From contig QPGO01000050.1 in assembly GCA_008632985.1 (NCBI GenBank), positions 62,001-126,000 of the forward strand: a DNA stretch of 64,000 bases, in the 5' to 3' direction. Origin of the DNA: Psammoneis japonica (Eukaryota). The translations under genes and the position numbers were made by a program. Position 1 is the stretch's first letter. Every line of letters starts with the position of its first letter. Shown piece after piece: positions 6,301 through 52,324 of the stretch. A model generated the notes under the pieces. That model saw only the letters and a program-made list of their open reading frames with translations. It searched no databases and was not told the origin of the DNA.

Positions 6301-6309
6301 TGACACGTC

Positions 6310-7946: not shown

Positions 7947-7983
7947 TGCATTGGGGATGGCGCCAGAACCCAGAGCTGTGCTG
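7560..7983 (+). repeat. Tandem duplication (about 220 bp, two copies) of the copia RNase H end, PPT and LTR start
   Basis: ttgtctctgacaggaccaa...ggatggcgccaga.cccagagctgtgctg occurs at about 7560-7776 and 7781-7983. Confidence 0.85.
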
Positions 7984-30815: not shown

Positions 30816-30954
30816 CGGGAACTACATAAAACGTTTGAGCTGAGCTTCAACACCAACAGCGCTTGCTAGTATCTATAAAAAGGGAGCTATTCTTAGTCAG
30901 CAGCACAGATAGCAGTAAAATACGAGAAAGAACAATGAAAGTCATTAGGCAAAC

Positions 30955-33015
30955 ATGACGCTGCAACAAAAAGTACCGATCAAGCGACGAGCTGCTACAA
31001 GAAATCATCACTCCAACAACATGACGACTCCATGGCGAGCGTTTGCAATCATGCAATTGTTGTTCCATTCATCATCTTGGGCCCAAGTATCACAGGCTCC
31101 CTCCGCCATGATAATTACTCCAGCTACATTGGAGCCATCGCCTCTTCCAACGTTCGAGTCCACACCTACGACAACTATGGAACCTACCGCCGAACCCACC
31201 GCTGCTGATACTACTACAACTACCGTGAGTCCTTCACCGAGCCCAAGTGCCTCGATGACAGCGAGTCTCACTACAGCTGTTGCTTCATCCACCTCTGTTC
31301 CAACAGTCAACCTTCCAGCACTCCAACAAGTCAACCATCCAGTACACCGACCAGCTCTCCAACCGTAGCAGCCACTACCACGAGTCCAACAACAAGTCCA
31401 TCAACAAGTCCTTCTTTAGCCACATTGCTTCCCACTACGACTCCCACATTTCTTCCAACCATCATGGAAAGCAGCCTTGCTCCTACTGCCCAACTGACCT
31501 TATCACCCAGCATCACTACTACGACATTGCCTTCCAGTGCACCATCCATCACCATCACTGCATTTTCCTCCGAGCAGCCCATCAGTACGATAGTTACTAC
31601 CGAACCAACCGGCAGTCCAACGACGACAGCCACCACAACGTCACCAACAATTATCCCTTCTACAATACCACCATCCACCTCTGTACCATCCTCTGCTGGC
31701 GGCACCGCCATTCCAGTCAATGGCACAGTCGGGGTCAATCTCCTGTACGTGTCGGGCACAATGAATGACAATACATTGGAAATATTTCGATTCATATCGC
31801 AAGCCTTTTTATCCAATGCGCTCAGCATGTTGGAACAGCCCGTTTCGAGTGTGGAGGTGACCCGAGTGTACAACCAACAAGTGTCCACGCCAACCGACGT
31901 GGATGCCAGCGGTAGTGCCGGATTGCAGCAATTGACTGTGCAACTGGATGCGAGGTGCGACTTTCGTCCTCGTCAAGGCTTTTCAACTGTATCAGAGGAT
32001 TTGGATTACAGTCGTCTATTACGAAATGTCTTTACCGTGCAGAGTCCAGCCTTTATTTCGCTATTACAGCAATCGGGCAATGACTACTTTTCCACCGTCA
32101 TTTCCGTCAATTCCGTGGTGATACAAGACGAAACCAACAATATTGAAAACAATGGTGAAAATTCTTCTTCCTCAAACAGTGGACTCTCGACAGGAGTGAT
32201 TATTGCCATTGTCTTGGGTACCGTGATTGTGTGTTGCCTCTTTGCCTTGGATATCGTTATGCCAGAAGGACGACTACTCGACCACGAAACTATTTCAAAA
32301 GCACGGGTCCCAACAACAACACATCTCTTGCTGTCAATACATGCATGGGTTCGTCGTCGAATGCTGCTGCTTCCAAGAATAGGAAATTGGATAGTTCCTT
32401 TTGGACTCCACTGAAAAAGTCCAAACAACCACAACGACGACAAGCAACACCCAGTTCGGCTCGATCCTCCAATCTATCCTACGTGGAGGATGGTCAATCC
32501 AGTCCCAAGAGCCAAGTCAGCAGCTATTCGTATCGACAACGAACCAAATCAAGTGACGACTCGTCATGTAACGATGGATCGTATTTGGCAAACAGTAGCA
32601 AGGGCGGAGGCGACTTGACGTATGCCTATTCGCTCGACGACGGTATTCAAGATGCGGCCACGTATGATCCTGGGTCCATATCCAGTGGAACCACCATGAT
32701 GGGTACTACTATAGCCGGTGGTTCCTTGTCGGCACCGTCCTTTCAAGACGAACATGACATTCCACCTTGAAAGGCACAACGAGATGTCTATGCGCCACCG
32801 GGTCGATTGGGAATTGTCGTGATACCACTGGATGGACCCCAGTCATGTCGCTCAAGGATGACAGTCCACTGGTGGGTGTGATTCGGGTAGATGACTTGAT
32901 TGTTGCCATTGATGATGTTGATACACGCAACATGACGGCCAATTCGATTGGACAATTAATGGCGATTAGTATGAGTCGAAGACGGAAATTGACATTGTGG
33001 AGTGATATTGAATGA
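30955..33015 (+). CDS. Ser/Thr/Pro-rich single-pass membrane protein with C-terminal PDZ-like domain (indels and one TGA in this assembly)
   Basis: Signal-like segment, mucin-like PT/ST tract, TM helix GVIIAIVLGTVIVCCLFAL, then RDVYAPPGRLGIV...DSPLVGVIRVDDLIVAIDDVDTR. Confidence 0.7.
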
Positions 33016-33697
33016 TAATAGGAGGAGCAACGAATCCAGTAGACATAGAAGTGGTGTGGTCCATTCTCGGTTCTTTGGAATTGTGGATCTCGGTGCCGAG
33101 GGAATACGATGATGGAATGTGTGCTGTGGGTCTATGCACATACCTTGGCGGATGTGCTGAGTCTGCGTTTGCAATAAAGGCAGCGTCGACTGGAACAGTA
33201 CCGACTCTGGGGAATGCAGGGACTATGAACGACGATACCGTTACCAGCACCAGTCTGCTAGCTCCACTCTGTCTCGGTAGAGCGACAGCGACAAAATGTG
33301 TGTTAGGATTGGTAGTTGAAGCGGCAAACTCTATGTTAGATAAGCAAACGATAATTGTAATGTTGTACTATACTTTCTGCTCGAAGCTAACTAATAACAT
33401 ATATCCCCTCGATGCTAATCGAGACTCACTAACGTCTCGATTGCATTGCCTCCCAACTGACATTCTAATGCTTCCAAGAACTTAAAAAGCACCGATTCGA
33501 AAGGCAAGCCTGATTTGTTTCAATGTCGTGACCCAACTTCCAATGGCAGGTGCCAGAACCTCAACAACAAATTCTTGGTTTCTTCGCGGGGTTTCATAAA
33601 CGGCACAGAATCTTGAAGAACGTTCATCACATAAATCGACGTATCTAAAACTCTCGTCACCCAATATTTGGCTTTCCACTCCATTGTAGAGCGACAG

Positions 33698-34553
33698 TCA
33701 GACAAAATTGGGTTCCGAAAGAGCGACACCTTTTCAAAAAGCAGGTTTCGCCCGAGTCTTTGCAATCTCCAAAACTTTCTTCCCCCAATGTCCAACACTC
33801 GATTTGATCTCAGAGAGATGGTTAGACAAGATTGGGTTCCGAAACGGCAAAAAATTATCGCGTTCCTGCAGAACGCGAGCCTGAGTCTGGATTTGCGCGA
33901 CAACGTCGTTCGAGAATACGTCTACAAGTTTCCACCAAAGCTGAAACACTTCCAACTTGGATTCCAAAAAAGTATTGTACGTGTCCGACAAGAAGGCCAA
34001 CTGGATCTCCAAAAATATCGTGAACGTATCTTGGAACGGGACTCCCTTGGTCTGAATCGTGCTATCGGGAGTAGTGTTGAGAAAAAGTTGCTGGAGGCTG
34101 CCGTTGGAGTCGCCATTGTTGTCCGGTACAAAATAGTCATAGACACAATACTCGTTAGCATCATCTTCTGGTACAATCGTGGGCATGGTATTGCGTAGGA
34201 GGTCTTGGACGCGACTCGGAGACTTGTCGCCGTCGTCAAAACAAACGCAAAAGCTGGAAGTGATGATGGCGTTTTCGAAGGGAACAGTGCCGGGAGCAGC
34301 GTTGCTGATGATGTCATGGTAGTAGCTGGGGGTTAGTATCGATATATGAGTAACTGTTGTTGTCCAAAAACTTGCGTAGGAGCTCTTGGTTGAACGTGGC
34401 GATACTGTCGGTCGCCGTGGCGGCCTTGATCGACAAGGCGCTAACGGAGCGCTTTGCCGTACCCGTATCCACAAACGAGGCAGAGAGAGGGCTGATGATG
34501 GCACCAGCGCTCATGGCGGCAATGATGGCAAGGACAAAGTTCATGATTTTCAT
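33698..34553 (-). CDS. Hypothetical secreted protein (copy 1, normal TA content, apparent indels)
   Basis: Starts MKIMNFVLAIIAAMSAGA. The frame was reconstructed using the second copy at 46873-47718. Confidence 0.6.
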
Positions 34554-34859
34554 GATGGACTGTGAACTGACGAGCAATTCAGAAATTGTGAGAGCACTCG
34601 AACGAGAAGAGATTCTGTCTGCAATGGAGGTGCCGTGGTACAAAGCACGTAGAAATCTACGTGGCGTCAGCCGTTATCGCGTTGGAGTGATGTTCAGAGA
34701 AAGTTTCGCGAAAGTTAGTTAGTACGGAGCAGCTGAAGCTAGCTCGCAGTGGCATTTCGGCGCAGTTGATGAATCTATCGATCTTAGTTGGTCGTGCTTT
34801 TCTGCTCATTCCAGAATAATTCGCTCGCTCGCTCGTCGTTCCTGGTTGATGCTTGATGC

Positions 34860-36470
34860 AGGATGCATTCAGCAGCCAACAGTCAACTGCTGCTGTTGCA
34901 TAAAAACAAAATGGCATCAATGACACATGATGGCACCACCATGGCCAGCTGCTGCAATGCCCCCATTGTTCTTCCAGAGAAAAAGGGGGGTGACTTTGAG
35001 GGGGTGGGGCGAGAAGAGAGGTTGGCACACTTTTGACGTGCGTGTGTGTGCCCATGGCATTGCCTCAGAGTCTTTTGGCTGTAAATGCGCATTTGCCAAA
35101 GAACACACAAGCAATGACACTGTAGAAAAAGCAAAGAAACAACCAGCGACTTCTGGCCTGTTCCAGCTCCAGGTGATCCGCTTTTCATCACGAGAGAGGC
35201 CGATTTTCTGCGCAGTTTAGCGCAACTGACTCCTTCAATTTTGATCGTTTCGAAAATTGAAAGGTGAATGTACACCCAAAAATGCATGTTAAGTGCACAC
35301 TTGCCCTTTGATTTGGCAAAAAACGGATTTGGAAAAAGTTGATTGCGCTGAATGCACAAATTGCCAAATGATGGGAATCGAACCCGCTCGGAGCACCTGG
35401 AGCTGGAACAGGCCTTCTGCAGGTCACAAGCAAACAATGCTGTTGAGATGGCAGGGGACAGCAAAGTCAAGGAACCATCGAAAGATGTGGCAGCATCTCC
35501 CAAAGACACTCCCAAGCTTGGCAATGGCGTGTTTGACAAAATTCCTTCTCATGCATTTCCTGCATTTGAGTCAGTGCTTCTGGCCAGTGTTGCTGCACTG
35601 ACTGCATCAGGAGAAAGTGCCGAAGTGCCTGACAAAGTTGGCCAAGAACAAGGTGTGCAAGGACTCTCCTTTGTTTGTCTTGCACTGTTTTGTTGATGCT
35701 TGCATCAAGTTTGAACTTCTGCTTGCCATCATGACAGGTCTTGTCTCAGCCACAATTGGAGAGTGCGGCCTTTGCTGTTGCCAGGCTCCGATGCCTCTTT
35801 TTTCCTGGCCATTGCTGCTCCTGGGCACCCACACATCTTTTGTGATTGATGATGTGTCAATTTTGTGATGGACCCACATCATGCAAGTGACATTGAATTT
35901 GTAAAAGAAGAAATCAAGGGCATGCTGTGGGTTTGTGAAGATTTTGTTCCTTGCTCTGGAATGACAGGTTGTGCCCATTTTGCTCAAGACCACATCTGTT
36001 TGCCCCGGCATCCACGAGAAAAAACAGAGCTGATGCAGCAACCCAGGCCTGTCTGACTTTTGCCATGCCACTGCAGGATCAAGAACATCACAAGCCTGCA
36101 CCGCTCTTGTGGAGCTGCTGCCAAACAAGTGCATGGTGGTCAAGGCCACCGCCAACACTGTGGATGGTGTCTTCAGTGCAAGCAGGGGACAGCAGAGGTG
36201 CAGGCTTTTGGCCATTGCATGTCAATGTAAAAGTTTCACAGAAGCAACCAGTGCTGCAACAGCAGCAGCCATGATGTGAGGCATGTTGCTCCTGTTGGAT
36301 GACTTGACCAAGCGCGCCACTCTCAAGCATGAATGCATTCTTGGCAAAATCTGTCCAGTGATCATGGGTGCCACAGCCATCCCATTGGACCTGCATGGCA
36401 CCACCAATGTCTCTCCTGAGATTGCAGTGTGCAGACTGCTGCAGACTTTGAAATCCTTGCCCTTGACAAT
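34860..36470 (+). repeat. Unclassified repeat family, copy A
   Basis: Aligns with about 41960-43370 and 48040-48995. Confidence 0.85.
35155..35414. mobile_element. 260-bp MITE with 26-bp TIRs and a 4-bp TSD (TTCT)
   Basis: ttct|ggcctgttccagctccaggtgatccg ... cggagcacctggagctggaacaggcc|ttct. The empty site cggc-ttct-gcagg is visible at about 48313-48325. Confidence 0.92.
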
Positions 36471-36479
36471 CTGGGCCTT

Positions 36480-37930
36480 GAGAGCAAAAATGCAACTCGG
36501 GTCATCACAGAGGTGTGCCACGAAGACAGAGCCCTGACCTCCAGCATCGAGGAATTTGATGACACAGAAATCATGGAGATGCCAACACTGCCCACATCAA
36601 GCCTTTTGGCGGGGTGTCATTTGTTCAATTGGAGCCATTGGATCAGTCAGACGGTTGGAGAGCATGGCTTTCAAAGCTGGGCCGCATTTGTCAAGGTCGT
36701 CATCAACGCAGTCTCGGATCAATTTTCGAATCCTTGGGACTCAAATCCAAACAATGGCTTGGGCTTGGAGGGAATGTTGTCCATTCCCATGTTGGTGTCT
36801 GCAGTGCTGGTGGGAGACACGCTGCGAAGCTGCTCAGCATTGACTGAAGCGGGCTGCGGTGCAGAGACGAGAAAGTTGGTGCCCAAAACGGGCTTGACGT
36901 GTTCCTGAATGCATCACATGGCATGCGCATGATGAGCGGCTTCAAAACTGTGGCCTGGAATGACGTCGTCCATGATCTTTGCCACTCGGCGAAGGTTTTC
37001 AATGGGTCCGTCCTTTGTGAGACTGTGGATGAGATCACAAAGGAGTTTGTCCATCGGACGATCCTTGCTGCCTTTGACGGGACCGCCGCTCATCTCGGCC
37101 AAGGAGTTCCATGCTTGTTTGGCCGTCGTGGATGTCTCTGGATGGCGCAAACACATGAGAGGTTGGATGCGGTCGGCGATGGTGCCCGGGTTGGGTTTTT
37201 TCTAATCGTCGCAGGTTTGGATCCACTGGTCCACAAGCTCTTCCCTGGCCCCACATGAAACCGCCAAGAGAGGAACCTTGCACTGGTTTTTGTTTTCAGC
37301 AGTCCCAAGCTGAGTCCACCCCAAGTTGGCAAAAGCGCCGCGGTGCATTTTGACGGGAATGCCATCGTGCAAGACAGCTTCAAGAAAGCAAATGGCCAAG
37401 GTGCCCAAATTGAGCAAATGGCTTCCACAAAGGGGTCAAGCGACAATTGCAAGATCAGTCAATTGCGCATCGGTTGCTCATTCATCCTTGGTCGAATGCT
37501 GTGCAGACCACCGCAGGACCTCCAGAAACTTGTTGTCGACAGCGGTGCATTTGTGCCCTGCTTGCAGCTGTCTGAGCTCCATCTTCTTGGAGTTCGTGAG
37601 TCTGCCGACACAAGTGGGAAGGAGAAGCAAATCATGCTCTGCTTTGACAGCATGTTTCCACTCATGTGCTTTGGCGGGAAAACCTGGCGCTGTTGCGTTG
37701 CACATCACCTCGAGCGCATTTTCGTCCAAGATTTTTGGGTCAAAGAGTTCGAACTCACTGCTTTGAGGGTCGAATGCCGCACAGTGTTGGCGCTGCTTCG
37801 TTTGGGCACCTTTTCTGCACTCATGATGGCCTTTGGCTGGAGTTTGACAGCACAAGAAGCAGAGCAGCAACAGCCCATGAGAAGCGAAGTCACATTGTTG
37901 GGAACAAGCGCAGTTGTTCGTTGCCGCAGC
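36480..37930 (-). mobile_element. TpA-depleted unclassified coding remnant next to the satellite
   Basis: Broken minus-strand frames with no TA but CG retained. No recognisable domain. Confidence 0.3.
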
Positions 37931-39670
37931 AATTTTTGGAAAGTCTTGCTGTCACCCGCACACATTTCCCAAAAATGCGTTTTTCCTGAAAATCATTGTT
38001 TTTTGGGAAACACGACTCACCACTTTCCCAAAATTGTGCGTTTCTTTGGAAAAACAAAATTTTTGGAAAGTCTTGCTGTCGCCCGCACACATTTCCCAAA
38101 ACTGCGTTTTTCCTGAAAGTCATTGTTTTTTGGGAAACACGACTCACCACTTTCCCAAAATTGTGTGTTTTTTGGGAAACACGACTCACCACTTTCCCAA
38201 AATTGTGTGTTTCTTTGGAAAAACGAAATTTTTGGAAAGTCTTGCTGTCGCCCGCACACATTTCCCAAAACTGCATTTTTCCTGAAAATCATTGTTTTTT
38301 GGGAAACACGACTCACCACTTTCACAAAATTGTGTGTTTCTTTGGAAAAACGATTTTTTGGAAAGTCTTGCTGTCGCCCACACACATTTCCCAAAACTGC
38401 GTTTTTCCTGAAAATCACTTGTTTTTTGGGAAACACGACTCACCACTTTCACAAAATTGCGCGCTTCTTTGGAAAAACGATTTTTTTGGAAAGTCTTGCT
38501 GTTGCCCGCACACATTTCCCAAAGCTGCGTTTTTCCTGAAAATCATTGTTTTTTGGGAAACACGACTCACCACTTTCCCAAAATCATGTGTTTCTTTGGA
38601 AAAACGATTTTTTTGGAAAGTCTTGCTGTCACCCGCACATGTTTCCCAAAGCTGCGTTTTTCCTGAAAATCATTGTTTTTTGGGAAACACGACTCACCAC
38701 TTTCACAAAATTGTGCGTTTCTTTGGAAAAACGATTTTTTTGGCAAGTCTTGCTGTCGCCCACACACATTTCCCAAAACTGCGTTTTTCCTAAAAATCAT
38801 TGTTTTTTTGGGAAACACGACTCGCCACTTTCCCAAAATCATGTGTTTCTTTGGAAAAACGATTTTTTTGGAAAGTCTTGCTGTCGCCCGCACATGTTTC
38901 CCAAAACTGCGTTTTTCCTGAAAATCATTGTTTTTTGGGAAACACGACTCGCCACTTTCCCAAAATTGTGTGTTTCTTTGGAAAAACGATTTTTTTGGAA
39001 AGTCTTGCTGTCGCCCGCACACATTTCCCAAAACTGCGTTTTTCCTGAAGACCACTGTTTTTTGGGAAACACGACTCACCACTTTCACAAAATTGTGCGT
39101 TTCTTTGGAAAAACGACTTTTTTGGAAAGTCTTGCTGTTGCCCACACACATTTCCCAAAACTGCATTTTTCCTGAAAATCATTGTTTTTTGGGAAACATG
39201 ACCCACCACTTTCCCAAAATCATGTGTTTCTTTGGAAAAACGATTTTTTTGGAAAGTCTTGCTGTTGCCCGCACATGTTTCCCAAAACTGCGTTTTTCCT
39301 GAAAACCATTGTTTTTTGGGAAACACGACTCACCACTTTCACAAAATCGTGTGTTTCTTTGGAAAAACGATTTTTTTGGAAAGTCTTGCTGTTGCCTGCA
39401 CACATTTCCCAAAGCTGCGTTTTTCCTGAAAATCACTGTTTTTTGGGAAACACGACTCACCACTTTCCCAAAATTGTGCGTTTCTTTGGAAAAATGATTT
39501 TTTTGGAAAGTCTTGCTGTCGCCCGCACATGTTTCCCAAAACTGCGTTTTTCCTGAAAATCATTGTTTTTTGGGAAACACGACTCACCACTTTCCCAAAA
39601 TCATGTGTTTCTTTGGAAAAATAAAATTTTTGGAAAGTCTTGCTGTCACCCGCACATGTTTCCCGAAAAG
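37931..39670. repeat. 127-bp tandem satellite, about 13.5 units
   Basis: ttttggaaagtcttgctgt recurs at about 37934, 38061, 38230, 38356, 38484, 38611 and on to 39628. One unit has an internal duplication of about 42 bp. Confidence 0.97.
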
Positions 39671-40189
39671 AACAACTTTCAAAATCTCGGTTGCTTTGCG
39701 CGAATGCACACACCAGCCCATCCGCACAAAATCAATCGCTGCGCACAGCACAGCTTCTGGCACTTTTCCAACGACGAGGTCAGAACTCAAAAACCATCAA
39801 TGGCGAAAATGGTGCTCGTCTCTGCGATGCTCGTTTCAAAGATGATCGGCTCGGCGCAGCCAAACAGCCCCTGTCCCATGACTGACATCTGCAACATGTG
39901 GCGCTGTGGTGAAAAAAGTCAGCACACTGAGTTGCAGCTTTGCGTCTTGTGGTGCAGTGTCGCGCTTTGATGTTTTTGGGGGTGTTGCCACACTGCCTGC
40001 CATTGTCTCACTCACAGTCGTTTGTTTCGTGTCATGTTCCAGAGCAAGGCATTGACGTCACATTGTCCACAGCGTTGAAGCCTCACGATTGATGTGGGTT
40101 GAGTTGTGGATTGTGGGGGGCAAACCAAGCAAAAGCAGCTGATCATTTGGGGACGCTGCAAGTGCTGCTTCGCATTGTTTGTCCATGAT

Positions 40190-40640
40190 GGATCAACTTG
40201 ATGCTCAACAAAAGCACCTGGAGCGACTTTGGAGTGTCGTTGGGCGTCTGACTCATTTGGCGACGCATCCTCGCACGGCATGGCGTCAATCTTGCATCTC
40301 ATTCTTCGTTGTTGATTGTTGGTTGTTGGCCGCGGGGTTGTGCACGACTGCTCAACTTGATGCTGCACTCAACAAAAGCACTTGGAATGACTGGCGTGCA
40401 ACAATTGCAGAGCACCATTGCGCGTTGGTTTGTTTTGTGATGTGTCCTTGCACGGCATGGCGTCAATCTTGTGTCTCATTGTTGCTTGTTGGTTGTTGGC
40501 CGCGCGTCGTGCACGACTGCTCAACTTGATGCTGCGCTCAACAAAAGCACTTGGAACGACTTGTGTGCAGCAATTGCAGAGCACTGTTGCGTGTTGGGTC
40601 ATTTTGTGGAAGTGTCCTTGCACAGCAGGGCATCAATCTC
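40190..40640. repeat. Tandem repeat of about 160-170 bp, about 2.7 copies
   Basis: tcaacttgatgct...caacaaaagcac occurs at about 40193, 40352 and 40521. Confidence 0.85.
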
Positions 40641-40988
40641 GTCTGGAGATTTGAGACAGAAGCAAGCGGCTGGCTCACCACACCAGTCAGTGGTGAGCAC
40701 ATGCAATGAGTTCAAGGGTGCAAAGCCCTTCTAAACCAACAGCATGAGCATTCTAAAAGCACAGCTGTGTTGTTCAGTGGTGAATTTTGTTTAAAACTGG
40801 ACGTGGAGGGGTCACATCCGTGCCCACTCCGTGCTTCATGCATGCCAATGCATGCAGGATGCCACGATGCTGCATCGACAAGTAACCCGGAAAGCAACCG
40901 AGAAATGCGAAAGGCACAAAGTCCATTCGAAGATGTCGCTTTCGGCCCGTTCACTTTCTACGTGGCCTGGTGCATCCCAAATCTGTGT

Positions 40989-41740
40989 GGAGCAGAACGC
41001 AATTTAAGGCCCGGCCTGAATTAAGGCCCTTGTGCCATCAGGCTCAAATCATGGATTCGAGGTGCGAGCTCCACAAAAACATCACGAGAACAGTGCTCGA
41101 CGAATGGTCAGCGGCCGTTTCCACCTGCAGTGCAGCTGCAAAAAAAATGACCATGCCACCACAAATGGAGGTCCAAACGAACAACACTGCACCAATCCTC
41201 ACCACATTGATGCACAAATGGATCCTGAGCAGCTTCGTCGCTGCAGTCAATGGATCCATTGACTTGCTCCTCATGGCTCTCCTCTGTTTCTCTGGTGCCT
41301 CTCATTGAACTCTTCTTGCTTTTGAAAATTACAACTGGTTTCTCCTTGTTGCACTGACCTTCACAAAGAAAGATGACACAGTCAACAAACATGATGGAGC
41401 ACATTCTTCCGTCTTCGGAGGCTTCTTCGGCGGCGCCATGGTGCATCATTTGTGTCGCATCGATGCGATGTGGGATCCCACGTAGGACGCAGCACTAATT
41501 CTACGCATGTGACGTGGAGGGCCTTAAATCACGACCATCCCATCATCCTCGCTCTTTGGACATTTTGGTTCGTGCGACAAAACTCATCAACTGTGCAGAT
41601 TTGAGAAAGTGGAACAATTTTTTTTCTGACAAGTTCAACGAGATCTTTCACATGAACACATGAAAGTGCGAAATGCACGCGCATCATGTCATCTTCATAG
41701 ATGGAGTTCTTAGCCGGGCCTTAAATTGCGCTCCACTCTA
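40989..41740. mobile_element. Non-autonomous TIR element of about 750 bp
   Basis: cgcaatttaaggcccggc (40998-41015) and its reverse complement (41713-41730), extendable outward to AGAGTAGAR once TA mutations are reverted. The internal motif ttaaggccc is repeated. Confidence 0.7.
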
Positions 41741-41949
41741 GATTCAGCACATTTTGCCCTGCAGAACAGTTTTTGGGAGTGTTCTGTGGCTCGCGGCTCA
41801 CAACAACACGCAAAATGACACGGACGACGGCGTTTCACCGATTTGAAAAATGCGATCGTCTCTGAGGTTGGAATCGTGCTAACCTTGGTGTCGCCCCACC
41901 GCGCCGGTGCTTGCTTTCCGTTCATCCAACTTTGTTGATGCCAGCAGTC

Positions 41950-44900
41950 AACTTTGCGAAACTTCTTGAAACTGTTGCACAAAACAACATGGCGTCAACG
42001 ACACGTGACAACACCACCGCCGCCCATTGCTGCAATGCCCCCATTGTTCCAGAGAAAAAGGAGAATGACGTCAAGGGAGCGGGAGAAGCGATTGACACAT
42101 TTTCGACATGCCGGCAGTCTGCATGTGCCCACGGCATTGCCTCAGAGTCTTTTGGCTGCAAACGCATCGACCACAAAGAACTTTGTCGTAAAGACAACAC
42201 AAGTGATGACACTGTAAAAGAAGCGAAGAAACCAGCGGCCTCTACAGATCACAAGCAAAGCAACATGTTTGAGATTCTGGACAGTCGTGATGACAAGGAA
42301 CCATCAAAAGATGCCGCAGCGCCTCCCAAAGACACCGCACCATCTCTCTTCAGCAAATCCGAGGAGGGCGGGCGACGACTCTAGCACTCCCGAGCTTCGC
42401 AATGTCATGTTTGATGAGATTCCTTCTCACACATGTCCTTCGTTTGAGTCAGCGTTTCTGGTTGCTGCGTCTGACAAAGTTTGCCAAGAACAAGGTGCGC
42501 AAGGGTTCTCCTGTGTTTGTCTTCCACTGTTTTGTTGATGCTTGCTTTAACTTCAAATTTCTGTTTGCCATTGTGATGGACCTTGTCTCGGCTGCAATTA
42601 GAGGGTGCAGCCTTGTGGCCACCTGTTGCCAGGCACCAACGCATCTTTTGCTGGCTGTTGCTGCTGCCAGGCACCGACGCATCTTTCATGATCAACGATG
42701 TGTCAATGTTCTGACGGACCTCTGCATTGCACAAGTGACATTGAATTTGTGGAAGAAACCGAGGGCATGTGGATTTGTGGAGTTGGTGAATGTGGAGCTT
42801 GCACCTGCATCTCAAAGCCCGAGCCATGGAAAAGACAATCTGGAATGACAGTTGAACGCACGCGTGCCAACAACAAGACAGGTTACACCCGTTTTACTCA
42901 CAAGACCGAGTCTCTTTGCCCCAGCCTCCATGAAAACAAACAGAATTGACACAGCAACCCGGGCCTGTCACAACTTTTGCCATGCCACTGCAGGATCAAG
43001 ATCATCACGAGCCTGTGCCACTCTGACGGAATTGCCACCGAATGAGCACATTGCGGTCGAGACCATTGTCACTCTGTGGATGTTGTCTCGGATGTGAGCG
43101 GGGGACAACAGAAATGCAGGCTTTTAGCCATCGCATGTCTGTGCAAATGGTTCACAGAAGTGACCAGCACTGCAACGGCAGTGGCCATGACGTGCGGCAT
43201 GTCACTCCTGTCGGATGACTTGATGAAGCTTGTGCTGAGCGCGAACGCATTCTTGGCAAAATCTGTCCCATGACGGGCGCCACGGCCATCCCGCTAGACC
43301 TGCATGGCACCACCAACGTCTCTCCCAAGACAGTGGTGTACGGACCGCTGCGGACTTTGACATTTGACGACGAAGTTCACGGCAGTCCCATTGAATCGTT
43401 TGGTGCATCCGAGCAAGATCACAATGCTGCAGCAACCTTCTTCGGGAGGCGTGCCTCGTTCATGCTGACGAGCCTTTGCTGGCACCCGAACGAGAGGAAG
43501 CGCAATTGTGTCTGCGTTCCTTCAGGCATGGGTGCATGGACCATGCTTTCATTGACGAATGGCCACAATGTGCGAAAAATCATGCAGACTCCTTTGTCTT
43601 CCCTGCATCCACCGCCAGAGAGGGGTTGGGAGGAGGTGTCGCATGATGAAATCGAGCCAACGAAATCTCTGAAACGAAGCACCCACGGCCACCACGTGTT
43701 TGCCTTTCGGTGGTTGACCTGCGCTTGGAATCCAGATCAAGATGATCCTGCTGCATGTTGCGTGGGTGACGATTTTCACTTTTCCTGTGGATGTGAAGTG
43801 AATTCCTTCGAATCAACGGTGTCCAGCCTCAACCTGTCACTGAAGCATGACTGGCGGTGTCCATCTTTTTGTGTCTCCCACGTCAAGACGTCAACTCCAT
43901 TCAGTGTTCCCATTGATGGCTTTCATGGATGCTCCGCGAAGCACTCAACACGGATGCCCGGCATCAACATGCATGAGGTGCGTTTCAATCCCAATGGCAC
44001 GTTGCAAAACTCTGGTCGAGACATTGGCCAATTCATTGGTCTCCGCGGTGAACCAGGCGGTGAGACATTGGTGGGACACTTTTGCCCATTGCCCGCCCCA
44101 ATGACGTTGGGGTGATTTGTATTTTGCACCGGACCGACGCCAAAGTGGGGCCAATCACAAAGCTTCTAGATCGTTTGCGACCTTGTGGTGAAATGTGCGT
44201 GTCTGCATTGGGTGGCTTGTGGCTCAGGTTTACGGACCAGGGCATTTTCTTTTGAGAAAAGGTGTCAAAGATTGGATTGCTGGCGGTTGGTGCAGGAATT
44301 GCTCTCATGCTGTAAATCATTCGAGTGTTCGGGCGAGGCAGAGAGCGGTTTGGCGCACATGAAGATTCTGGATGATGCATGGGACTCGGATCCCAAACAT
44401 TCCAGATGCCGCGTGTTTCTCAATCAGCCTCCGCTTGGCTGGACGGTGAGTCGGTCGCTCCAAACGGTGTTTTTGAATTCCAACATTCGCTGCTTCCTTC
44501 TCAATGCTCGCCTCTTTTTCTCTTCCTTCGGTTTCCTTGGTGATTTAGGAGGGAGTTGGGTCCGTTGAGCCCCAAGGATGTCAAGAAGCACTTGATCTGT
44601 CCTCCCGAACCTGGAGATGTCTTTGCAGTTGGCGGATCTCCCGATTTTTGAAGCAGCGGAGTTGGCGACGTCACCATGGGAACTTCCCAGGCCACACAGC
44701 CTGTCTCTGAGCAATTGAAAGCCAGCCCAGATGACACAATGTTGTCTGCTCATTCCAATCCAGAGACAGAAAATGATTGTCCCTCCGATGAAGAAACTGT
44801 TGGTCAGGAGCAGAAATTGATGAAGCAAAAAAGAGTCGGTCTCTGTGGAAGGCTGCATGCTGGTCAGACCTGCCATTGTAATCGTGAAACGAAAACGACA

Positions 44901-45140
44901 CAGTGGAGCAAGCCTTCTGGCTTTGTCGACTGTGACACTTGCAAAACGGAGCAACGTTTGGGGTGACGGGAAAGACGGGCACAAATGATGCCACTCATGC
45001 GGACTCTCTGCATGAACATTAAAAAGTCGAACAAAACTCGCAGGACTTGGGACGTGCAAGAAGAGGTGATGCTGTTGTTCAGTGCCATCCAGAAGGACAT
45101 GAGATGAGCCTTTTGCTTGTCGCAACAAGCGAAAAGGCGC
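41950..45140 (+). repeat. Unclassified repeat family, copy B (longest, CpG retained), with a decayed long coding trace
   Basis: Homologous to copies A and C. Residual ORF at 43270-44115 (281 aa). Confidence 0.8.
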
Positions 45141-45144
45141 TTCT

Positions 45145-46200
45145 TGCGACTTTCGTCCTCGTCAAGGCTTTGCAACTGCATCGGAGGATTTGGGTTGCAG
45201 TCATCTATTACGAAATGTCTTCACCGTGCAGAGTCCAGCTTTTGTTTCGCTACAACAGCAATCGGGCAATGATTGCTTTTCCACCGTCACGTCCGTCAAT
45301 TCCGTGACACAAGACGAAACCAACAACATTGAAAACAATGGTGAAAATTCTTCTTCCTCGAACAGTGGACTCTCGACAGGAGTGATTATTGCCATTGTCT
45401 TGGGCACCGCGATTGTGTGTTGCCTCTTTGCCTTGGGATGTCGTTGTGCCAGAAGGACGACTCGACCACAAAACTGTTTCAAAAAGCACGGGTCCCAACA
45501 ACAACACGTCTCTTGCCGTCAATGCATCCATGGGTTCGTCATCGAATGCTGCTGCATCCAAGAATGGGAAATTGGACAGTTCCTTTTGGACTCCACTGAA
45601 AAAGTCAAAACAACCACAACGACGACAAGCACCACCCAGTTCGGCTCGATCCTCCAATCTGTCCTGCGTGGAGGACGGTCAATCCAGTCCCAAGGGTCAA
45701 GTCAGCAGCTGTTCGCATCGACAACGAACCAAATCTAGTGGTGACTCGTCATGTGACGATGGATCGTATCTGGCAAACAGCAGCAAGGGCGGAGGCGACT
45801 TGACACATGCCTGCTCGCTCGACGACGGCATTCAAGATGCGGCCACGTATGATCCTGGTTCCATGTCGAGTGGAACCACCATGTTGGGCACTGCATCCGG
45901 TGGTTCCTTGTCGGCACCGTCCTTTCAAGATGAACATGACATTCCACCCGGAAAGGCACAACGAGATGTCCATGCACCACCGGGTCAATTGGGAATTGTC
46001 GTCGATGCCACACTCGATGGACCCCAAGTCATGTCGCTCAAGGACGACAGTCCACTGGTGGGTGTGATTTGGGCAGATGACTTGATTGTTGCCATTGATG
46101 ATGTTGACACACGCAACATGACGGCTGGTTCGATTGGACAATCAATGGCAAACGCATGAGTCAAAGACGGAAATTGACATTGTGGAGTGATGATGAATGA
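45145..46200 (+). pseudogene. 5'-truncated, mutated copy of the PDZ membrane protein gene
   Basis: SYSYRQR->SCSHRQR, TYAYS->THACS and RDVY->RDVH relative to copy 1. Confidence 0.85.
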
Positions 46201-46872
46201 CAATGGGAGGAGCAACGAATCCAGCAGACATAGAAGTCGTGTGGTCCACATTCTTGGTTCTTTGGAATTGTGGATTGCGGTGCCGACAATAGGATGCTGG
46301 AATGTGTGCTGTGGGTTTGTGCACATGCCTCCAGGCGGATGTGCTGAGTCTGCGTTTGCAATGCAGGCGGCATCGACTGGAACAGAGCCGACTCTGGGGA
46401 ATGCAGAGACTGTGAAGACGACACCGTCACAAGCACCAGTCTGCTGGCTCCACTCTGTCTCGGAAGAGATGGCCACACAAAGTGGTGTTAGGATTGGCAG
46501 TCGAAGCGGCAAACTCTACGGTAGATGAGCAAACGACAATTGCACTGTTGTGCCACACTTTCTGCTCGAATCTAACTAATGACATACATCCCTTCGATGC
46601 CAATCGAGACTCACTAACGTCTGCCTCCCAACTGACATTCTAATGCTTCCAAGAACTTAAAAAGCACCGATTCGAAAGGCAAGCCTGATTTGTTTCAATG
46701 TCGTGACCCAACTTCCAATGCAGGTGCCAGAATCTCAACAACAACATTCTTGGTTTCTTTGCGGGGTTTCACAAACGGCACAGAATCTTGAAGAACGTTC
46801 ATCACATAAATCGACGCATCTAAAACTCTCGTCACCCAATGTTTGGCTTTCCACTCCATTGTAGAGCGACAG

Positions 46873-47718
46873 TCAGACAAAATTGGGTTCCGAAAGAGCG
46901 ACACCTTCAAAAAGCAGGGTCGCCCGAGTCTTTGCAATCTCCAAAACTTTCTTCCCCCAATGTCCAACACTCGATTTGATCTCAGAGAGATGGTTAGACA
47001 AGATTGGGTTCCGAAACGGCAAAAAATTGTCGCATTCCTGCAGAACGCGAGCCTGAGTCTGGATTTGCGCGACAACGTCGTTCGAGAATACGTCTGCAAG
47101 TTTCCGCCAAAGCTGGAACACTTCCGACTTGGATTCCACAAACGTGCTGTAGGTGTCTGACAAGAAGGCCAACTGGATCTCCAAAAATGTCGTGAACGCA
47201 TCTTGGAACGGGACTCCCTTGGTCTGAATCGTGCTGTCGGGAGCAGTGTTGAGAAAAAGTTGCTGGAGGCTGCCGTTGGAGTCGCCATTGTTGTCCGGCA
47301 CAAAACAGTCATAGACACAATGCTCGTTGGCACCATCTTCTGGTGCAATCGTGGGCGTGGTGTTGCGCAGGAGGTCTTGGACGCGACTCGGAGACTTGTC
47401 GCCGTCGTCAAAATGAGCGCAAAAGCTGGAAGTGATGATGGCGTTTTCGAAGGGAACAGTGCCGGGAGCAGCGTTGCTGATGATGTCATGGCAGCAGCTG
47501 GGGGTGGTGTCGACATCAGAGCAACTGTTGTTGTCCAAAAACTTGCGCAGGAGCTCTTGGTTGAACGTGGCGACACTGTCGGTCGCCGTGGCGGCCTTGA
47601 TCGACAAGGCGCTAACGGAGCGCTTTGCCGCATCCACAAACAAGGCAGAGAGAGGGCTGATGATGGCACCAGCGCTCATGGCGGCAATGATGGCAAGGAC
47701 AAAGTTCATGATTTTCAT
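46873..47718 (-). pseudogene. Mutated but open-frame copy of the secreted hypothetical protein
   Basis: YYH->CCH, EYCVYDY->EHCVYDC and TIVP->TIAP relative to 33698-34553. Confidence 0.75.
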
Positions 47719-48039
47719 GATGGACTGTGAACTGACGAGCAATTCAGAAATTGTGAGAGCACTCGAACGAGAAGAGATTCTGTCTGCAATGGAGGCGCCG
47801 TGGCACAAGACACGTGGAAATCTACGCGGCGTGGGCCGTTTCTCCGTTGCATTGAAGTTCAGAGAAAGTTTCGCGAAAGTTAGGCCCCTGCTGCCGTACG
47901 GCAGCTAGCTTGAAGCTGGCTGCGGCAGTGGGCATTTCGGCGCAGTTGATGAATCTATCGATCTTAGTTGGTCGTGCTTTTCTGCTCATTCCAGAACAAT
48001 TCGCTCGCTCGCTCGTCGTTCCTGGTTGATGCTTGATGC

Positions 48040-50290
48040 AGGATGCATTCAGCAGCCAACAGTCAACTGCTGCTGTTGCATGAAAACAAAATGGCATCAA
48101 TGACACATGATGGCACCACCATGGCAAGCAGCTGCAGTGCCCCCATGTTGTTCCACAGAAAAAGGAGGATGACTTCGAGGGGTGGGACGAGAAAAGAGAG
48201 GTTGGCACATTTTCGACGTGCGTGTGTGTGCCCACGGCATTGCCTCAGAGTCTTTTGGCCAAAGAACACATGCGCATCGAGAACACTGCAGAAAAAGCAA
48301 AGAAACAACCAGCGGCTTCTGCAGGTCACAAGCAAACAACACGCTGTTGGTCCATCGAAAGATGCCGCAGCACCTCCCAAAGACACTCCCAAGCTTGGCA
48401 ATGGCGTGTTTGACAAAATTCCTTCTCATGCATTTCCTGCATTTGAGCCAGTGCTTCTGGCCAGTGTTGCTGCACTGACTGCATCAGGAGAAAGTGCCGA
48501 AGTGCCTGACAAAGTTGGCCAAGAACAAGGTGCGCAAGGACTCTCCTTTGTTTGTCTTGCACTGTTTTGTTGATGCTTGCGTCAAGTTTGAACTTCTGCT
48601 TGCCATCATGACAGGTCTTGTCTCAGCCACAATTGGAGAGTGTGGCCTTGCTGTTGCCAGGCTCCAACGCATCTTTTGCTGGCCATCACTTTTCCTGGGC
48701 ACCCACACATCTTTCGTGATTGACGATGTGCCAATTTTGTGATGGGCCCACATCATGCAAGTGACGTTGAATTTGTAGAAGAAGAAATCAAGGGCATGTG
48801 GGTTTGTGAAGACTTTGTGCCTTGCTCTGGAATGACAGGTTGTGCCTGTTTTGCTCAAGACCGAGTCTGTTTGCCCCAGCATCCATGAGAAAAAAACAGA
48901 GCTGATGCAGCAACCTGGGCCTGTCTTAACTTTGGCCATGCCACTGAACATCACAAGCTTGCACCACACTTGCAGAGCTGCTGCCAAACAAGTGTGCAGA
49001 GATGGGTTTGCATGAGGTGTTGTGTGATGAAATTGAGCCAATGAAATCTCAGAAACAAAGCACCCAGCATGTTTGCACTTTGGTTGTTGACCCACACTTG
49101 GAATCCAGATCAAGATGATCCTGCTGCTTGGCACACTGGGCAGAGCAAGCTTGGGCAACTTTGTGTCTCACATGTCAAGACATCAACTGTGCTTCCATGA
49201 CTGTCAATGACACCCCCATTGATGGCTTTCATCAGCACTCTGTGAAGTGCTTAACATGGGCACCAATCATGACATTGGTGTGCACGAGGTGTGCTTTAAT
49301 CTCAACAATGCATTGCAAAACTCTGGTCCAGAGATGCTGGGCAATTTGTTCAAGACAGTGGGACACTGTTTTTGCCCATCACCCTGCCCCAATGACGTTG
49401 AGGCAATGACATTTTGTGCCAGACACACCAAAGGGGGACCAACCCCAAAGCTTTTAGATCATTGATGACCTGGTGGTGCAATGCACTTGTCTGCATTGGA
49501 TGTCTTGTGGCTCAGGTTTGCAGATCAGGGCATTTTCTTTTGAGAAAAGGTGTCAATGATTGAATTGCCAGCATGTGGTGCAGGAATTGCTCCCATGCTG
49601 CAAATCATTTGAGTGTTTGGGGAGCATGGACGAAGCCACCCTGAGCACAGTGGAGATGGGGCTCGCCAAGGCAGAGAGTGATTTGGCCTGCATTGAGATT
49701 CTGGATGATGTGTGGGACTTGGATCCCAAACATTTCAGATGCCACATCTTTTCTCAATCAGCCCCCGCTTGGCCGGACGGCAAGTCTGTTGCTCCAAATG
49801 CTGTCACTCCAATGTCAGGTGCTTCCTTTCTCACTGCTTGCCTCTCTTTCTCTTTCTTCAGTGCTTTTTGTGGTTTGGGAGGGAGCCAGGTTTGTTGAGC
49901 CCAAGGACATCAAGAAGCACTTGATCTGTCATCCCAAACCTGGAGACATTGTTGCAATTGGTGGAACTCCAATTTTCAAAGCAACGGCATTGGCAAAGTC
50001 ACAGTGGAAACTGCCCTTGCCATGCAGCCTGTCTCTGAGCAAGTCATGCAAATGCAGGTGACACATCCACTCCTTCCAATCCAGAGACAGAAAATGATTG
50101 TCCTTTGATGAAGAACTGTTCATCCAGAGCAGAAGTTGACAAAAAGCAAAAAAGCATTGGTCTCTGCGGAAGGCTGCAGTTGATGTCCATGCTGGTCAGA
50201 CCTGCCACTGTGGTTGTGAAACAAGAGCAACACAGCAGAGCAAGCCTTCTGACTTCTGACTTTGTCGAGTCATTTGAGTCCATCATTTCA
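48040..50290 (+). repeat. Unclassified repeat family, copy C (internally deleted, TA- and CG-depleted)
   Basis: Matches copy A up to about 48995, then about 43620-44930 of copy B. Confidence 0.85.
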
Positions 50291-50299
50291 TGCCAATGG

Positions 50300-51040
50300 C
50301 AACAATGGATTTTGCACTCGCTTCACTAAATTCAGCAGCATCGAGTTGCAGGAACTGAACAATGGCTCACCGCAAGGCAGCTGTTGTGATTTTACATGTG
50401 TCCAGTGCATCTTGTTTGCTTTGCCACAGAAAACGTGAATTGTCATTTTGCCTCCTTCAGCACAAGCCGCAGAAGAAAAGACAAAATCAATGCCACTGTC
50501 CCCATCACGAGTTCCTGATGAGCAAAGCTGTGGTCCCCTTTTCTTGAAGGAGCTGTTCTTTGCCCTTTTTGACAAGCAAGACATGTTCCGGCTTTTGGAC
50601 TGGCGAATGACAACTGCCAATCATCCCACCCATTGCAATGATTGCCCAAAGAAGAAGGAGGACACAAACAAACATGAGTGGCAAATGGCTGGCATGACAG
50701 AGCACCAAACAAGGATCCGTCACAAGAAGGAAGAAGCTTGCAATGAAAACACCACATGTCTGTGATGCAATGCAACTGATCGGGATTGCACTTCCTTGAG
50801 AAATTTGAGGCTCTCATGCTCATCGTTCCGAACTAACTTGGATGGCTCGCACTGCGTGTCATTGTTGCCGAGCCCAATTGGAGATGGCGTTCATGATGCA
50901 TCTGCTGCTCGCCACTCGTCCTTGCAACAAAAGATGCACAGACACATCTTGTTTGTGACAATGCATCTGAGACACAGTGCAACCATCTGCAATGATGAAC
51001 CACGACAGGACCAAAAGTGCACAACCATTTGCTCTAGAGT
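50300..51040 (+). pseudogene. Possible TpA-mutated host gene fragment of unknown function
   Basis: Coding-like frames 50448-50765 and 50796-51200, convergent with the PRCC-like gene and nearly TA-free. Confidence 0.3.
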
Positions 51041-51085
51041 TTTCCCAAGCATGTCAACATTGCAATCTCACATTGTGTCACATGT

Positions 51086-51946
51086 CTGCCACCCACATTT
51101 TTGTTTTGGATTGGCACGCCGATTTTGCTTGTCACTGACTGGTCCGGCTCCTTGTTGCGATCGTTGCAATTCCAAATTGACGGCACTCTGCACCAACTGA
51201 TTGATTTGATGTTTGGACCGGTGTTTGGACGTGACTTGATTTTGCAACTCATTGCTTCCCATGGATGAATGGTGCATTTTGACAGCCGCCTTTTGGATGA
51301 CGTGTGACTGGTGTTGCTCGTGTTGTTGCTCGTGTTGTTGGGGAGCCACGCAGCCTGAGCAATCTTGGGCTTGAATGGAAACAATGTTGCTGCCAGCATT
51401 GTCGTCCACAACTGCATCAAATTGTCCACTTCTCAAGGCTTGTTCCAACTGTCTTTTGCTCTTTTTTTTGGAGCGCTGTTGTGGTTGTTGAGCAGCATTG
51501 CCAAATTCTTGTGGATGCTGATGCATGGTGGAAGGTGCCTCGTTTAGAGAATGGCCCATGGGGGATGACGCTGCAGCAGCAGCAGCAGTGACCACTTGCG
51601 GTTGTTGTGTTGTTGCAGGAGCAGCATTTAAGTGATGAGGAGCAATGGCTGCAATGGGAGCAGCAGTGGCACTTGTCGTTGTTGGCAAAGTTTCCAAAGG
51701 AGCCGGATTTGTTCTTGTTGCACTTGCTGGCCCTGCCGCGCCAATGGCAACGTTTGTCTGTTCGTTTGATTCTTCTGACGAAACACGATCCTCCGTGGCA
51801 GCGTGAACATCAACAACGTCCTGGCCCTTTTTGGAAGTAGCAGCAGTTGTTGTTGTGGATGTCAGTGACAAACCCATGGCTGCATTTGGTTTCTGGTCCA
51901 ATGTCGAAGCATCTTCCTCATGCGCGGCAGTGCTTGCAAAGGGCAT
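51086..51946 (-). pseudogene. PRCC-like (proline-rich protein PRCC, C-terminal domain) gene, TpA-mutated
   Basis: The C-terminus KHRSKHQINQL...NRRANPKQKCGW resembles the PRCC KHQI..L...KYG(F/W)* ending. The presumed TAG stop now reads CAG at 51086-51088. Confidence 0.7.
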
Positions 51947-52324
51947 GGCCGGCCTCCAGCGGGAGTTGTTGATTGAAGCTCGGATAAAAGGGAGGAAATA
52001 CCACTGTCCTTCTTGACACTGCTTGCATTGGTGGATTTGGCGGATTCTTTCTTTTTGCCGATGCAGAAAAATTGAAAATCCGAGAATGCCGAATCCAAAA
52101 TCGCTGTCTGTAAAGCATGTTTGTCTGCTCTTTGTCACCTGGTCGCGCAACAAATCGCGCCAAAACGATTGGGCGCGCCATTTTTTTGCAGAGCTCGAAA
52201 AACCTCTCGTTCAAAATTCGGCATCTCGATCGGACGCACACACAACAACGAGCCAACCACTAAAAAACCCACGAAGTGCATCAAGTACGGCACCCTAAAA
52301 CCTAAGTAAGGCTTTGAGGAGAGG

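Follow-up and report, generated by a model that had tools for sequence, protein, structure and literature searches.

The DNA considered here is a window of 64,000 nucleotides on the forward strand of contig QPGO01000050.1 (assembly GCA_008632985.1, positions 62,001 to 126,000) of the diatom Psammoneis japonica, and all coordinates below are counted from its first base. It contains a segment that is present twice and that comprises the 3' two-thirds of a gene for a putative membrane protein (gene 1), an intergenic spacer, the whole of a second gene (gene 2) with its upstream region, and part of an adjoining repeat, which we refer to as the T family (Table 1). BLASTN matches 31956-35079 to 45145-48259 (91.4% over 3154 columns) and 35475-36131 to 48352-48994 (91.4% over 659 columns), and copy 1 (31956-36131) and copy 2 (45145-48994) run colinearly and in direct orientation at a distance of 13.2 kb. 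What distinguishes the two copies is the dinucleotide TpA, which is kept in the gene part of copy 1 and largely replaced by TpG or CpA in that of copy 2, and this probably reflects a hypermutation process that is confined to certain compartments of the genome and aimed by chromosomal position. An earlier note on this DNA, made from the letters of the sequence, had described the two copies as colinear, with most of their differences removing TA from copy 2, and both points hold (91% identity; 82 TA-type differences in this direction, none in the other); the duplicate extends about 1 kb past the end coordinate given there.

The predicted product of gene 1 begins with a signal-peptide-like stretch and further comprises a Ser/Thr/Pro-rich ectodomain, a transmembrane helix and a Ser-rich tail, with a PDZ-like domain at the C-terminus whose PDZ matches are below the threshold in Pfam. 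An exhaustive search with the open reading frame (ORF) for the tail and PDZ domain of copy 2 returned 872 relatives, which cover the tail and the PDZ part only, and in the cluster of one stored relative of this PDZ family Bacillariophyta are commonest; a word-indexed search with the gene 1 ORF of copy 2 gave no relative among 1512 candidates. For gene 2 there is no Pfam match, and a word-indexed search found no homologue among 3199 candidates. As the homology between the copies begins in the middle of gene 1, at 31956, copy 2 is a 5'-truncated duplicate and copy 1 the parental locus. The left flanks of the copies differ, there is no poly-A at either end of copy 2, and copy 2 retains the intergenic spacer and genes of both orientations. 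The duplicated unit consists of host DNA with a T-family repeat at its right end, a layout that fits either a segmental duplication or a flank that was carried along by the T repeat. A simple tandem duplication of 13.2 kb was rejected, because the downstream parts of the copies do not match: the T repeat of copy 1 stops matching at 36454, and that of copy 2 continues into 48997-50255, which is homologous to 43616-44923 in a third, older T-family copy and colinear with that copy through 50255 except for a 574-bp gap relative to it. The third copy ends about 220 bp to the left of copy 2, and a near-perfect hairpin of about 11 bp, read by eye at ~45105-45135, i.e. 10-20 bases left of the start of copy 2, could be the end signal of this neighbouring repeat.

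In a global MAFFT alignment, the two copies differ by 292 substitutions, 212 transitions and 80 transversions, and the transitions, read from copy 1 to copy 2, are 83 T>C, 75 A>G, 27 C>T and 27 G>A. All five substitution examples quoted in the earlier note are present in the alignments. When the fates of dinucleotides were traced through the gene part of copy 1 (31956-34830), its 119 aligned TA were found to read TA (30), CA (43), TG (39) or otherwise (7) in copy 2, whereas the 32 aligned TA of copy 2 read TA (30) or otherwise (2) in copy 1 and never CA or TG. The count of TA-type differences is thus 82 versus 0 (two-sided binomial p ~4e-25, computed from the counts), and copy 2 would have lost 82 of 112 ancestral TA (73%), of which 43 are now CA and 39 TG. 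This one-sidedness runs through all classes of sites, as 19 synonymous and 35 non-synonymous coding changes, 23 intergenic changes and 4 changes upstream of gene 2 face zero changes in the reverse direction in every class. The intergenic spacer, which had been said to keep its TA in copy 1, indeed has 39 TA there at an observed/expected ratio (o/e) of 0.73, compared with 14 TA at 0.30 in copy 2; together with 11 TA upstream of gene 2, 50 non-coding TA are untouched in copy 1. Copy 1 has a TpA/ApT index of 0.48 and copy 2 one of 0.17, with CA and TG in excess. Sites based on TA diverge by 39%, CpG sites by 13.8% and all others by 3.0% (67/2210), from which we estimate that TpA loss in copy 2 amounts to ~44 times the per-base background of one lineage and ~11 times the loss of CpG per dinucleotide in the same DNA. 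CpG decay is symmetric between the gene parts, with 18 CG of copy 1 reading TG/CA in copy 2 and 15 CG of copy 2 reading TG/CA in copy 1; no increase is seen in the gene part of copy 2, and there is one in the T part of each copy, with 29-41% of the CpG sites differing. TpA loss and CpG decay are therefore separable. GC-biased gene conversion was rejected as a cause, since the changes are specific to TpA rather than to A/T in general.

That TpA is the ancestral state, and CA or TG the derived one in copy 2, is indicated by composition and by relatives of the gene 1 product. The TA o/e of copy 1 (0.59 in its part of gene 1, 0.73 in the spacer, 0.54 in gene 2, 0.72 upstream) is like that of unduplicated reference DNA, which is 0.65 for the 5' part of gene 1 and 0.55 for unique DNA at 26000-30948, and copy 2 with 0.10-0.46 is the outlier, which argues that TA was lost in copy 2. 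As an outgroup, 214 domain segments from 145 proteins were aligned with both copies at non-synonymous TA-type sites; these segments had been recruited with copy 2 as query, which is a bias against TA as the ancestral state. Five codons favour copy 1, namely 141 (Y of copy 1 in 24 relatives, H of copy 2 in 4), 143 (Y in 25, C in 0), 196 (Y in 21, H in 1), 230 (V in 40, A in 14) and 253 (L in 162, S in 0), and one, codon 124, favours copy 2 (N of copy 1 in 1 relative, D of copy 2 in 8). Codons 94, 109 and 111, non-synonymous TA-type sites in the low-complexity tail, are uninformative, and codons 206-209, which align ambiguously, were left out of the count. An outgroup with TG/CA as the ancestral state had been named in advance as a possible refutation; as found, 5 of 6 informative amino-acid sites point to TA.

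The changes in copy 2 have a distinct character. Both strands are hit equally (TG 39, CA 43), also when the TG/CA split is taken by region (gene 1 16/16, spacer 10/13, gene 2 11/12, upstream 2/2), and the changes are unclustered and form 41 strand runs versus 41.9 expected, i.e. there are no strand-coordinated runs. This symmetry argues against the editing of a single RNA or DNA strand and against a transcription-coupled asymmetry. Coding TA-type changes are spread over codon positions 1, 2 and 3 as 14, 20 and 20, and this evenness, together with the 19 synonymous and 35 non-synonymous changes, implies that copy 2 took them without selection. There is a marked preference for a pyrimidine (Y) over a purine (R) after the edited adenine: T-A-Y strands are edited in 66 of 134 cases and T-A-R strands in 16 of 90 (odds ratio 4.5, Fisher p 1.3e-6), and TA loss accordingly differs by context, from 28% for YTAR to 73% for YTAY, 85% for RTAY and 86% for RTAR. 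The old depleted blocks of the window, described below, have the same ranking of contexts, with 0 ATAT versus 75 in genic DNA of similar length, 1 ATAC/GTAT versus 169, and densities relative to genic DNA of 0.28 for CTAA/TTAG and 0.31 for TTAA.

How these changes relate to the surroundings was followed with a two-state hidden Markov model (HMM) on TA/(TA+CA+TG) and a 1-kb profile over the 64-kb window. The window is bimodal in TpA, and about half of it consists of sharply bounded depleted blocks, in which TA o/e is 0.04-0.14 and CA and TG climb to 1.5-2.1; no stretch of the window has an excess of TpA. CpG decay is also present in the window (CG o/e 0.15-0.43 in some blocks), and CpG is depleted in some blocks only, with CG o/e of 0.15-0.16 at the window ends and ~0.7-1.0 over much of 37-48 kb; at 38-40 kb, TA o/e is ~0.01 with CG o/e of ~1. 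Copy 2 lies wholly within one depleted block, and the gene part of copy 1 lies just outside the edge of the same block. It had been proposed that mutation follows the genomic neighbourhood and that copy 1 keeps its TA up to about 34830, and the segmentation bears this out, as the HMM places the boundary at 34818/34843, with the T parts of both copies depleted beyond it, and as copy 2 is inside the block 34843-52259. Around the boundary (~34780-34980), the copies are nearly identical in sequence, yet a boundary is seen at copy 1 only, and it is therefore not encoded by this sequence alone.

Table 1. Positions of the duplicated segment, its genes, the repeats and the TpA compartments within the window.
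Feature	Position	Strand	Description
Gene 1, parental full-length locus	30949..33015	+	from ORF translations
Gene 2, small predicted secreted protein	33737..34553	-	from translations
Copy 1, gene part	31956..34830		3' two-thirds of gene 1, intergenic spacer, gene 2 and gene 2 upstream; TA o/e 0.54-0.73
Copy 1, repeat (T-family) part	34831..36131		TA o/e 0.08; contains MITE-like insertion
Copy 2, gene part	45145..48010		5'-truncated duplicate; TA o/e 0.10-0.46
Copy 2, repeat (T-family) part	48011..48994		TA o/e 0.03, CG o/e 0.37
Third, older T-family copy	41972..44923		65-73% identical to repeat parts of copies 1 and 2
MITE-like insertion, 260 bp	35155-35414		26-nt terminal inverted repeats, short target duplication; in copy 1, absent from copy 2
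Tandem satellite, 127-bp unit	37931-39669		~14 units, 92-95% identity; TA o/e 0.01, CG o/e ~1
DDE_3 (Tc1/mariner/IS630-type) transposase remnant	22227-23357		Pfam above cut-off
Depleted block	1..8319		TA o/e 0.04, CG o/e 0.16
Depleted block	19007-25679		TA o/e 0.06-0.14; partly normal island 21780-22772
Depleted block containing copy 2	34843..52259		TA o/e 0.05-0.12 outside two islands, CG o/e 0.43-0.97
TA-retaining islands inside copy 2	46489-46659 and 47823-47966		HMM
Depleted block	59308-64000		TA o/e 0.04
Normal block containing copy 1 gene part	25680..34818		TA o/e 0.58, CG o/e 1.04
Further normal blocks	8320-19006, 52261-59304		normal blocks overall TA o/e 0.58-0.67

Host-type Pfam domains (kinase, SNF2/helicase, short-chain dehydrogenase, FAD-binding) occur in the normal blocks only. 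Among 137 ORFs of the depleted blocks that were scanned with Pfam, one is above the cut-off (DDE_3), three are sub-threshold (HemY_N, CMC4, zf-C2H2) and none has a viral domain. The depleted blocks hold the transposase remnant, the three-copy T family, a miniature inverted-repeat transposable element (MITE) and the satellite, and copy 2 itself is derived from host genes. The satellite is practically free of TpA while its CpG is at expectation, which means that TpA loss and CpG loss are uncoupled. The DDE_3 remnant is half depleted and lies in the least depleted part (TA o/e ~0.14-0.31, CG 0.77-1.04), as expected for a younger insertion, and this suggests that TA is lost well before CpG. The MITE-like element is highly repeated in the genome: in contigs built from exact 31-letter words of the reads of one sample for the region 30501-50000, depth over the element is ~8940 (bin 35051-35700), about 100 times the local baseline of 50-100. 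A joint 35414>48971 in these contigs has only 21 letters on one side and was treated as repeat noise. In a metagenome scan, the terminal repeat of the MITE-like element gave 4 matches, all by chance and in unrelated contigs, and a 41-base stretch identical in both copies gave 0 matches.

We consider it probable that these observations have a common origin in a compartment-confined hypermutation with positional targeting in cis. A DNA-level process would turn TpA into TpG or CpA, i.e. A:T to G:C on either strand, and would favour T-A-pyrimidine on the strand being edited; it would act within sharply bounded, repeat-rich and gene-poor compartments, from which nearly every TpA would be removed over time. 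The segment with the 3' part of gene 1, the whole of gene 2 and the adjoining repeat would have been duplicated, and the new copy would have landed in a depleted compartment and lost 73% of its TpA there, while the parental copy, beside a depleted block in the gene compartment, would have lost none. What the copies and blocks display directly is a process that hits the two strands independently of each other, with a preference for T-A-Y and within the limits of compartments; it takes no notice of homology and does not depend on CpG decay. There is good support for position-guided targeting: whether DNA is targeted would be decided in cis, by its place on the chromosome rather than by its own sequence, by a foreign origin, or by a pairing or homology of the duplicates. 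A role of chromatin is plausible: the likely determinant would be the chromatin state of the repeat compartment, or a spreading from flanking repeats, and provided that the positional explanation is right, we regard it as somewhat favoured that aiming occurs by repeat-compartment chromatin or by spreading from the repeats that flank copy 2.

A closely similar process has been described for the chlorarachniophyte Bigelowiella natans, in which mutation-accumulation lines revealed that integrated viral DNA is hypermutated at TpA (Mettrop et al., bioRxiv 10.64898/2026.01.13.699255). According to this preprint, 231 of 302 nuclear point mutations fell into two integrated viral regions, and 230 of the 231 were GC-biased, all at TpA towards TpG or CpA, at ~1000 times the baseline rate, with 2-45 mutations per line over 186 kb; the larger viral region is single-copy and transcriptionally silent, the viral insert has a Rho of 0.45, and 124 TpA-depleted clusters in 95 Mb are enriched for transposase and reverse-transcriptase domains (bioRxiv 10.64898/2026.01.13.699255). 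Its authors propose an ADAT2-like deaminase and discuss RNA guidance or epigenetic marks for the aiming, and the main text of the preprint makes no mention of diatoms, CpG or trinucleotide context (bioRxiv 10.64898/2026.01.13.699255). As far as the preprint describes it, the process is alike in that TpA changes to TpG or CpA on both strands, in its regional restriction (here blocks of 0.04-0.14 versus 0.58-0.67, and copies with 82 versus 0), in that the target need not be repeated, with the converse seen here, as the untouched copy 1 implies that duplication draws no mutation, and in the long-term footprint of TpA depletion with CpA/TpG gain. The differences are that B. natans is a rhizarian and P. 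japonica a stramenopile, that the footprint is far stronger here, with TA o/e of 0.04-0.14 over about half of the window versus the Rho of 0.45 given there, that a relocated fragment of host genes was hit here, so that foreign origin would not be required, that the +1 pyrimidine preference and the CpG independence are seen here only when set against the main text of the preprint, and that de novo mutations were reported there, whereas here there is the historical footprint alone.

For the chemistry, we tentatively favour the adenine deamination in DNA by an ADAT/TadA-like deaminase that has been proposed for B. natans; the enzyme may well prove to be a different one. The T-A-Y preference is a constraint on any candidate. 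Enzymes of the ADAT/TadA type act on A34 after the invariant U33 of tRNAs, and the bacterial TadA acts on U-A-C, and such targets would fit the T-A-Y preference seen here.

Which other explanations could account for the difference between the copies? One alternative retains the same targeting and replaces the chemistry, in that within the silent compartment an enzyme would modify the thymine of TpA, for instance by oxidation to 5-hydroxymethyl- or 5-formyl-uracil, and the modified base would mispair with G, resulting in T-to-C changes. The palindromic target and the equal outcome on both strands fit a mark on double-stranded DNA, and R-T-A is T-A-Y read from the other strand. The 5-hydroxymethyluracil of dinoflagellates occurs preferentially at TpA, and 5-formyluracil promotes T-to-C mutation. 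To our knowledge, no thymine modification of this kind is known in diatoms, and the B. natans authors favour adenine deamination (bioRxiv 10.64898/2026.01.13.699255). We see this chemistry as unlikely.

It is much less likely that copy 2 was edited off the chromosome through an RNA or single-stranded intermediate, for example by an ADAR-like enzyme during retroposition or by a single-strand deaminase during rolling-circle replication or transposition. The duplicated unit does end in a T repeat, which would fit a flank carried by a mobile element, and ADAR-type enzymes favour U before the edited A (bioRxiv 10.64898/2026.01.13.699255). However, the strands are hit equally and without coordinated runs (39 versus 43; 41 runs versus 41.9 expected), the spacer and both gene orientations are kept without a poly-A, and the surrounding non-homologous DNA is likewise depleted.

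A similarly slim chance applies to an equal targeting of both copies, for example by homology, that was followed by purifying selection cleaning the functional copy 1. Copy 1 is the full-length locus, and a burst-like mutator could be purged as whole haplotypes, with neutral sites included. On the other hand, copy 1 has lost 0 TA, including its 39 intergenic, 11 upstream and all synonymous sites, and the sparse events reported for B. natans imply that neutral hits are not purged together with deleterious ones (bioRxiv 10.64898/2026.01.13.699255). Moreover, copy 1 does not appear to be under strong constraint. As assembled, its gene 1 has a 1-bp deletion just behind the transmembrane helix, near 32248, an in-frame TGA at 32768, and at ~32820-32843 a 3-bp deletion in the conserved PDZ motif that is followed a few codons later by a 1-bp deletion (near 32843), and its gene 2 has a 1-bp frameshift near 34333, which adds up to an in-frame stop, three 1-bp frameshifts and a 3-bp motif deletion; copy 2 keeps a continuous frame at every one of these sites. 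A tiny intron in place of the gene 2 frameshift was rejected, as a length of 29 is incompatible with the frame. The lesions mean either that the parental locus, too, is losing both of its genes or that the assembly has small indel errors, and some of the 1-bp indels may indeed be assembly errors. In the read contigs there is an extra G at 32248 (depth 118.9 of 193.7), which might restore the frame of gene 1 and could equally come from cross-placed copy 2 contigs, and we do not rely on it. The earlier view that selection on copy 1 is not the whole explanation is in line with the 50 untouched non-coding TA and with the stop and frameshifts of copy 1.

An artefact, be it mis-joined haplotypes, a chimeric assembly or base-calling errors at modified bases of heterochromatin, is highly improbable. 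In its favour, several of the 1-bp indels lie in short homopolymers of the assembly, the read contigs differ from the assembly at 178 places over 19.5 kb, 23 indels were recorded, no contig spans both copies, and the records of the runs do not give the library type. Against it, the left flanks of the copies differ and copy 2 starts within a gene, the copies also differ by transversions, indels and the MITE insertion, and the read contigs cover 30 of 30 bins at a likeness of at least 95%, including copy 2 and depleted DNA, i.e. both versions of the segment; the read runs may be the assembly's own data. Among the 40 of the 178 differences that were listed (30501-37200), 20 are of the CpG type and only 2 of the TA type, and 14 have TG/CA in the assembly and CG in the contigs versus 6 the reverse; the CpG-type differences point to an ongoing CpG polymorphism or heterozygosity.

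The weakest alternative, a process like repeat-induced point mutation (RIP), by which C-to-T at CpA created TpA in copy 1 and left copy 2 near the ancestral state, can practically be dismissed, for although the raw differences are what RIP would leave if the polarity were reversed and one outgroup site (N in 1, D in 8) favours copy 2, the TA o/e of copy 1 (0.54-0.73) equals that of the unduplicated flanks (0.55-0.65) and would become an outlier without the 82 TA, the window has no TpA excess and is half nearly TpA-free, 5 of 6 outgroup sites favour TA as ancestral, RIP would hit both copies, and the best matches of the SNF2 gene in the window and of the PDZ family are diatoms and not fungi.

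There are nevertheless several points that weigh against a positional hypermutation, or at least against a simple version of it. The layout of the copies in cis rests on the assembly, as no read contig spans both. Read depth over 33101-35050 is raised to 477-1105, and there may thus be more than two copies of that part. Polarity is based on composition, on the truncation of copy 2 and on six outgroup amino-acid sites, which is a small sample with codon 124 as the contrary one. A patch at 33456-33955 has kept 7 of its 12 TA at a background divergence of 0.5-1.0%; it could be the tract of a later gene conversion, and dating is thereby complicated. The long-term excess of TpA loss (~44-fold) is well under the ~1000-fold of B. 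natans. Finally, copy 2 may have been targeted as a portion of the T element that brought it in, which would be another form of targeting in cis, and on present evidence "neighbourhood" and "part of a mobile element" are inseparable.

Compared with other known systems, the process combines familiar features in an unfamiliar way. RIP, as in Neurospora and other ascomycetes, mutates CpA to TpA in duplications that are detected by homology, with both copies being mutated, and its tracts tend to be strand-coordinated. It is likewise a defence-like, dinucleotide-specific point hypermutation, by which repeats and transposons are degraded and base composition is strongly marked, but it is fungal, it creates TpA where TpA is destroyed here, it mutates both duplicates where the count here is 82 versus 0, and the changes here have no strand coordination. 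The earlier note had likewise called the process unlike RIP, and TpA is in fact lost rather than created and one copy hit rather than both. Methylation-driven CpG decay, i.e. the deamination of 5-methylcytosine, also yields TpG and CpA and marks silent repeat compartments, but it acts on CpG, which between the copies changed symmetrically (18 versus 15). The hyperediting by ADAR and APOBEC enzymes in animals acts on RNA or on single-stranded DNA intermediates and leaves strand-biased clusters. It is alike in being a deaminase-type, context-dependent editing of selfish sequences, and in that ADAR is described in the preprint as favouring U before the edited A, but in the present case neither strand is preferred, each is hit independently of the other, and host sequence that is not mobile is changed where it lies.

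TpA hypermutation as such is no longer new, given the experiments on single-copy inserts in B. natans. New here are the different lineage, the much greater intensity, the fact that host genes are hit, and the information on sequence context and CpG. In the literature, we found no report of a TpA depletion or hypermutation in diatoms, and we found such a process only for B. natans. The locus is a clean internal control, because the same sequence is present in two places 13 kb apart and one copy is mutated, and it thereby argues against a recognition by sequence composition, foreignness, duplication or a trans-acting homology, and for a positional control in cis. The occurrence in a diatom and in a chlorarachniophyte suggests that the process is widespread in algae of the SAR group (stramenopiles, alveolates and Rhizaria). 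A more far-reaching hypothesis, for which the odds appear nearly balanced and lean slightly to the negative side, is that a chromatin-compartment-directed TpA editing is shared by these distant lineages and mutates all DNA in a silent compartment, including host genes, whatever its homology, copy number or origin and regardless of CpG methylation, with an enzyme that reads T-A-Y on double-stranded DNA. If this were true, a large share of some diatom genomes would have been reshaped, with old transposons made unrecognisable. A natural TpA-specific A:T-to-G:C editor of double-stranded DNA would be of interest to those who build base editors.

Depletion of TpA also has consequences for annotation. 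The depleted DNA no longer contains TAA and TAG stops, and of the 278 ORFs of at least 90 amino acids in the window, 186 fall there (the 137 scanned with Pfam are among these 186). The loss of these stops thus results in many long false ORFs in the depleted blocks, which would mislead gene finders, and transposons in depleted DNA no longer match the profiles of their families. Several of the block boundaries 8320, 25680 and 52261 lie close to where a long ORF or gene starts, at a distance of a few tens to a few hundred bases: the ORF 8323-9210 starts 3 bases inside one boundary, and the SNF2 ORF (52310) 49 bases inside another. The best named matches of this SNF2 gene (52310-54711) are from Chaetoceros, Thalassiosira and Nitzschia at 40-49% identity, and an SNF2-family entry of B. 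natans matches it at 38%. Exons in the window are long.

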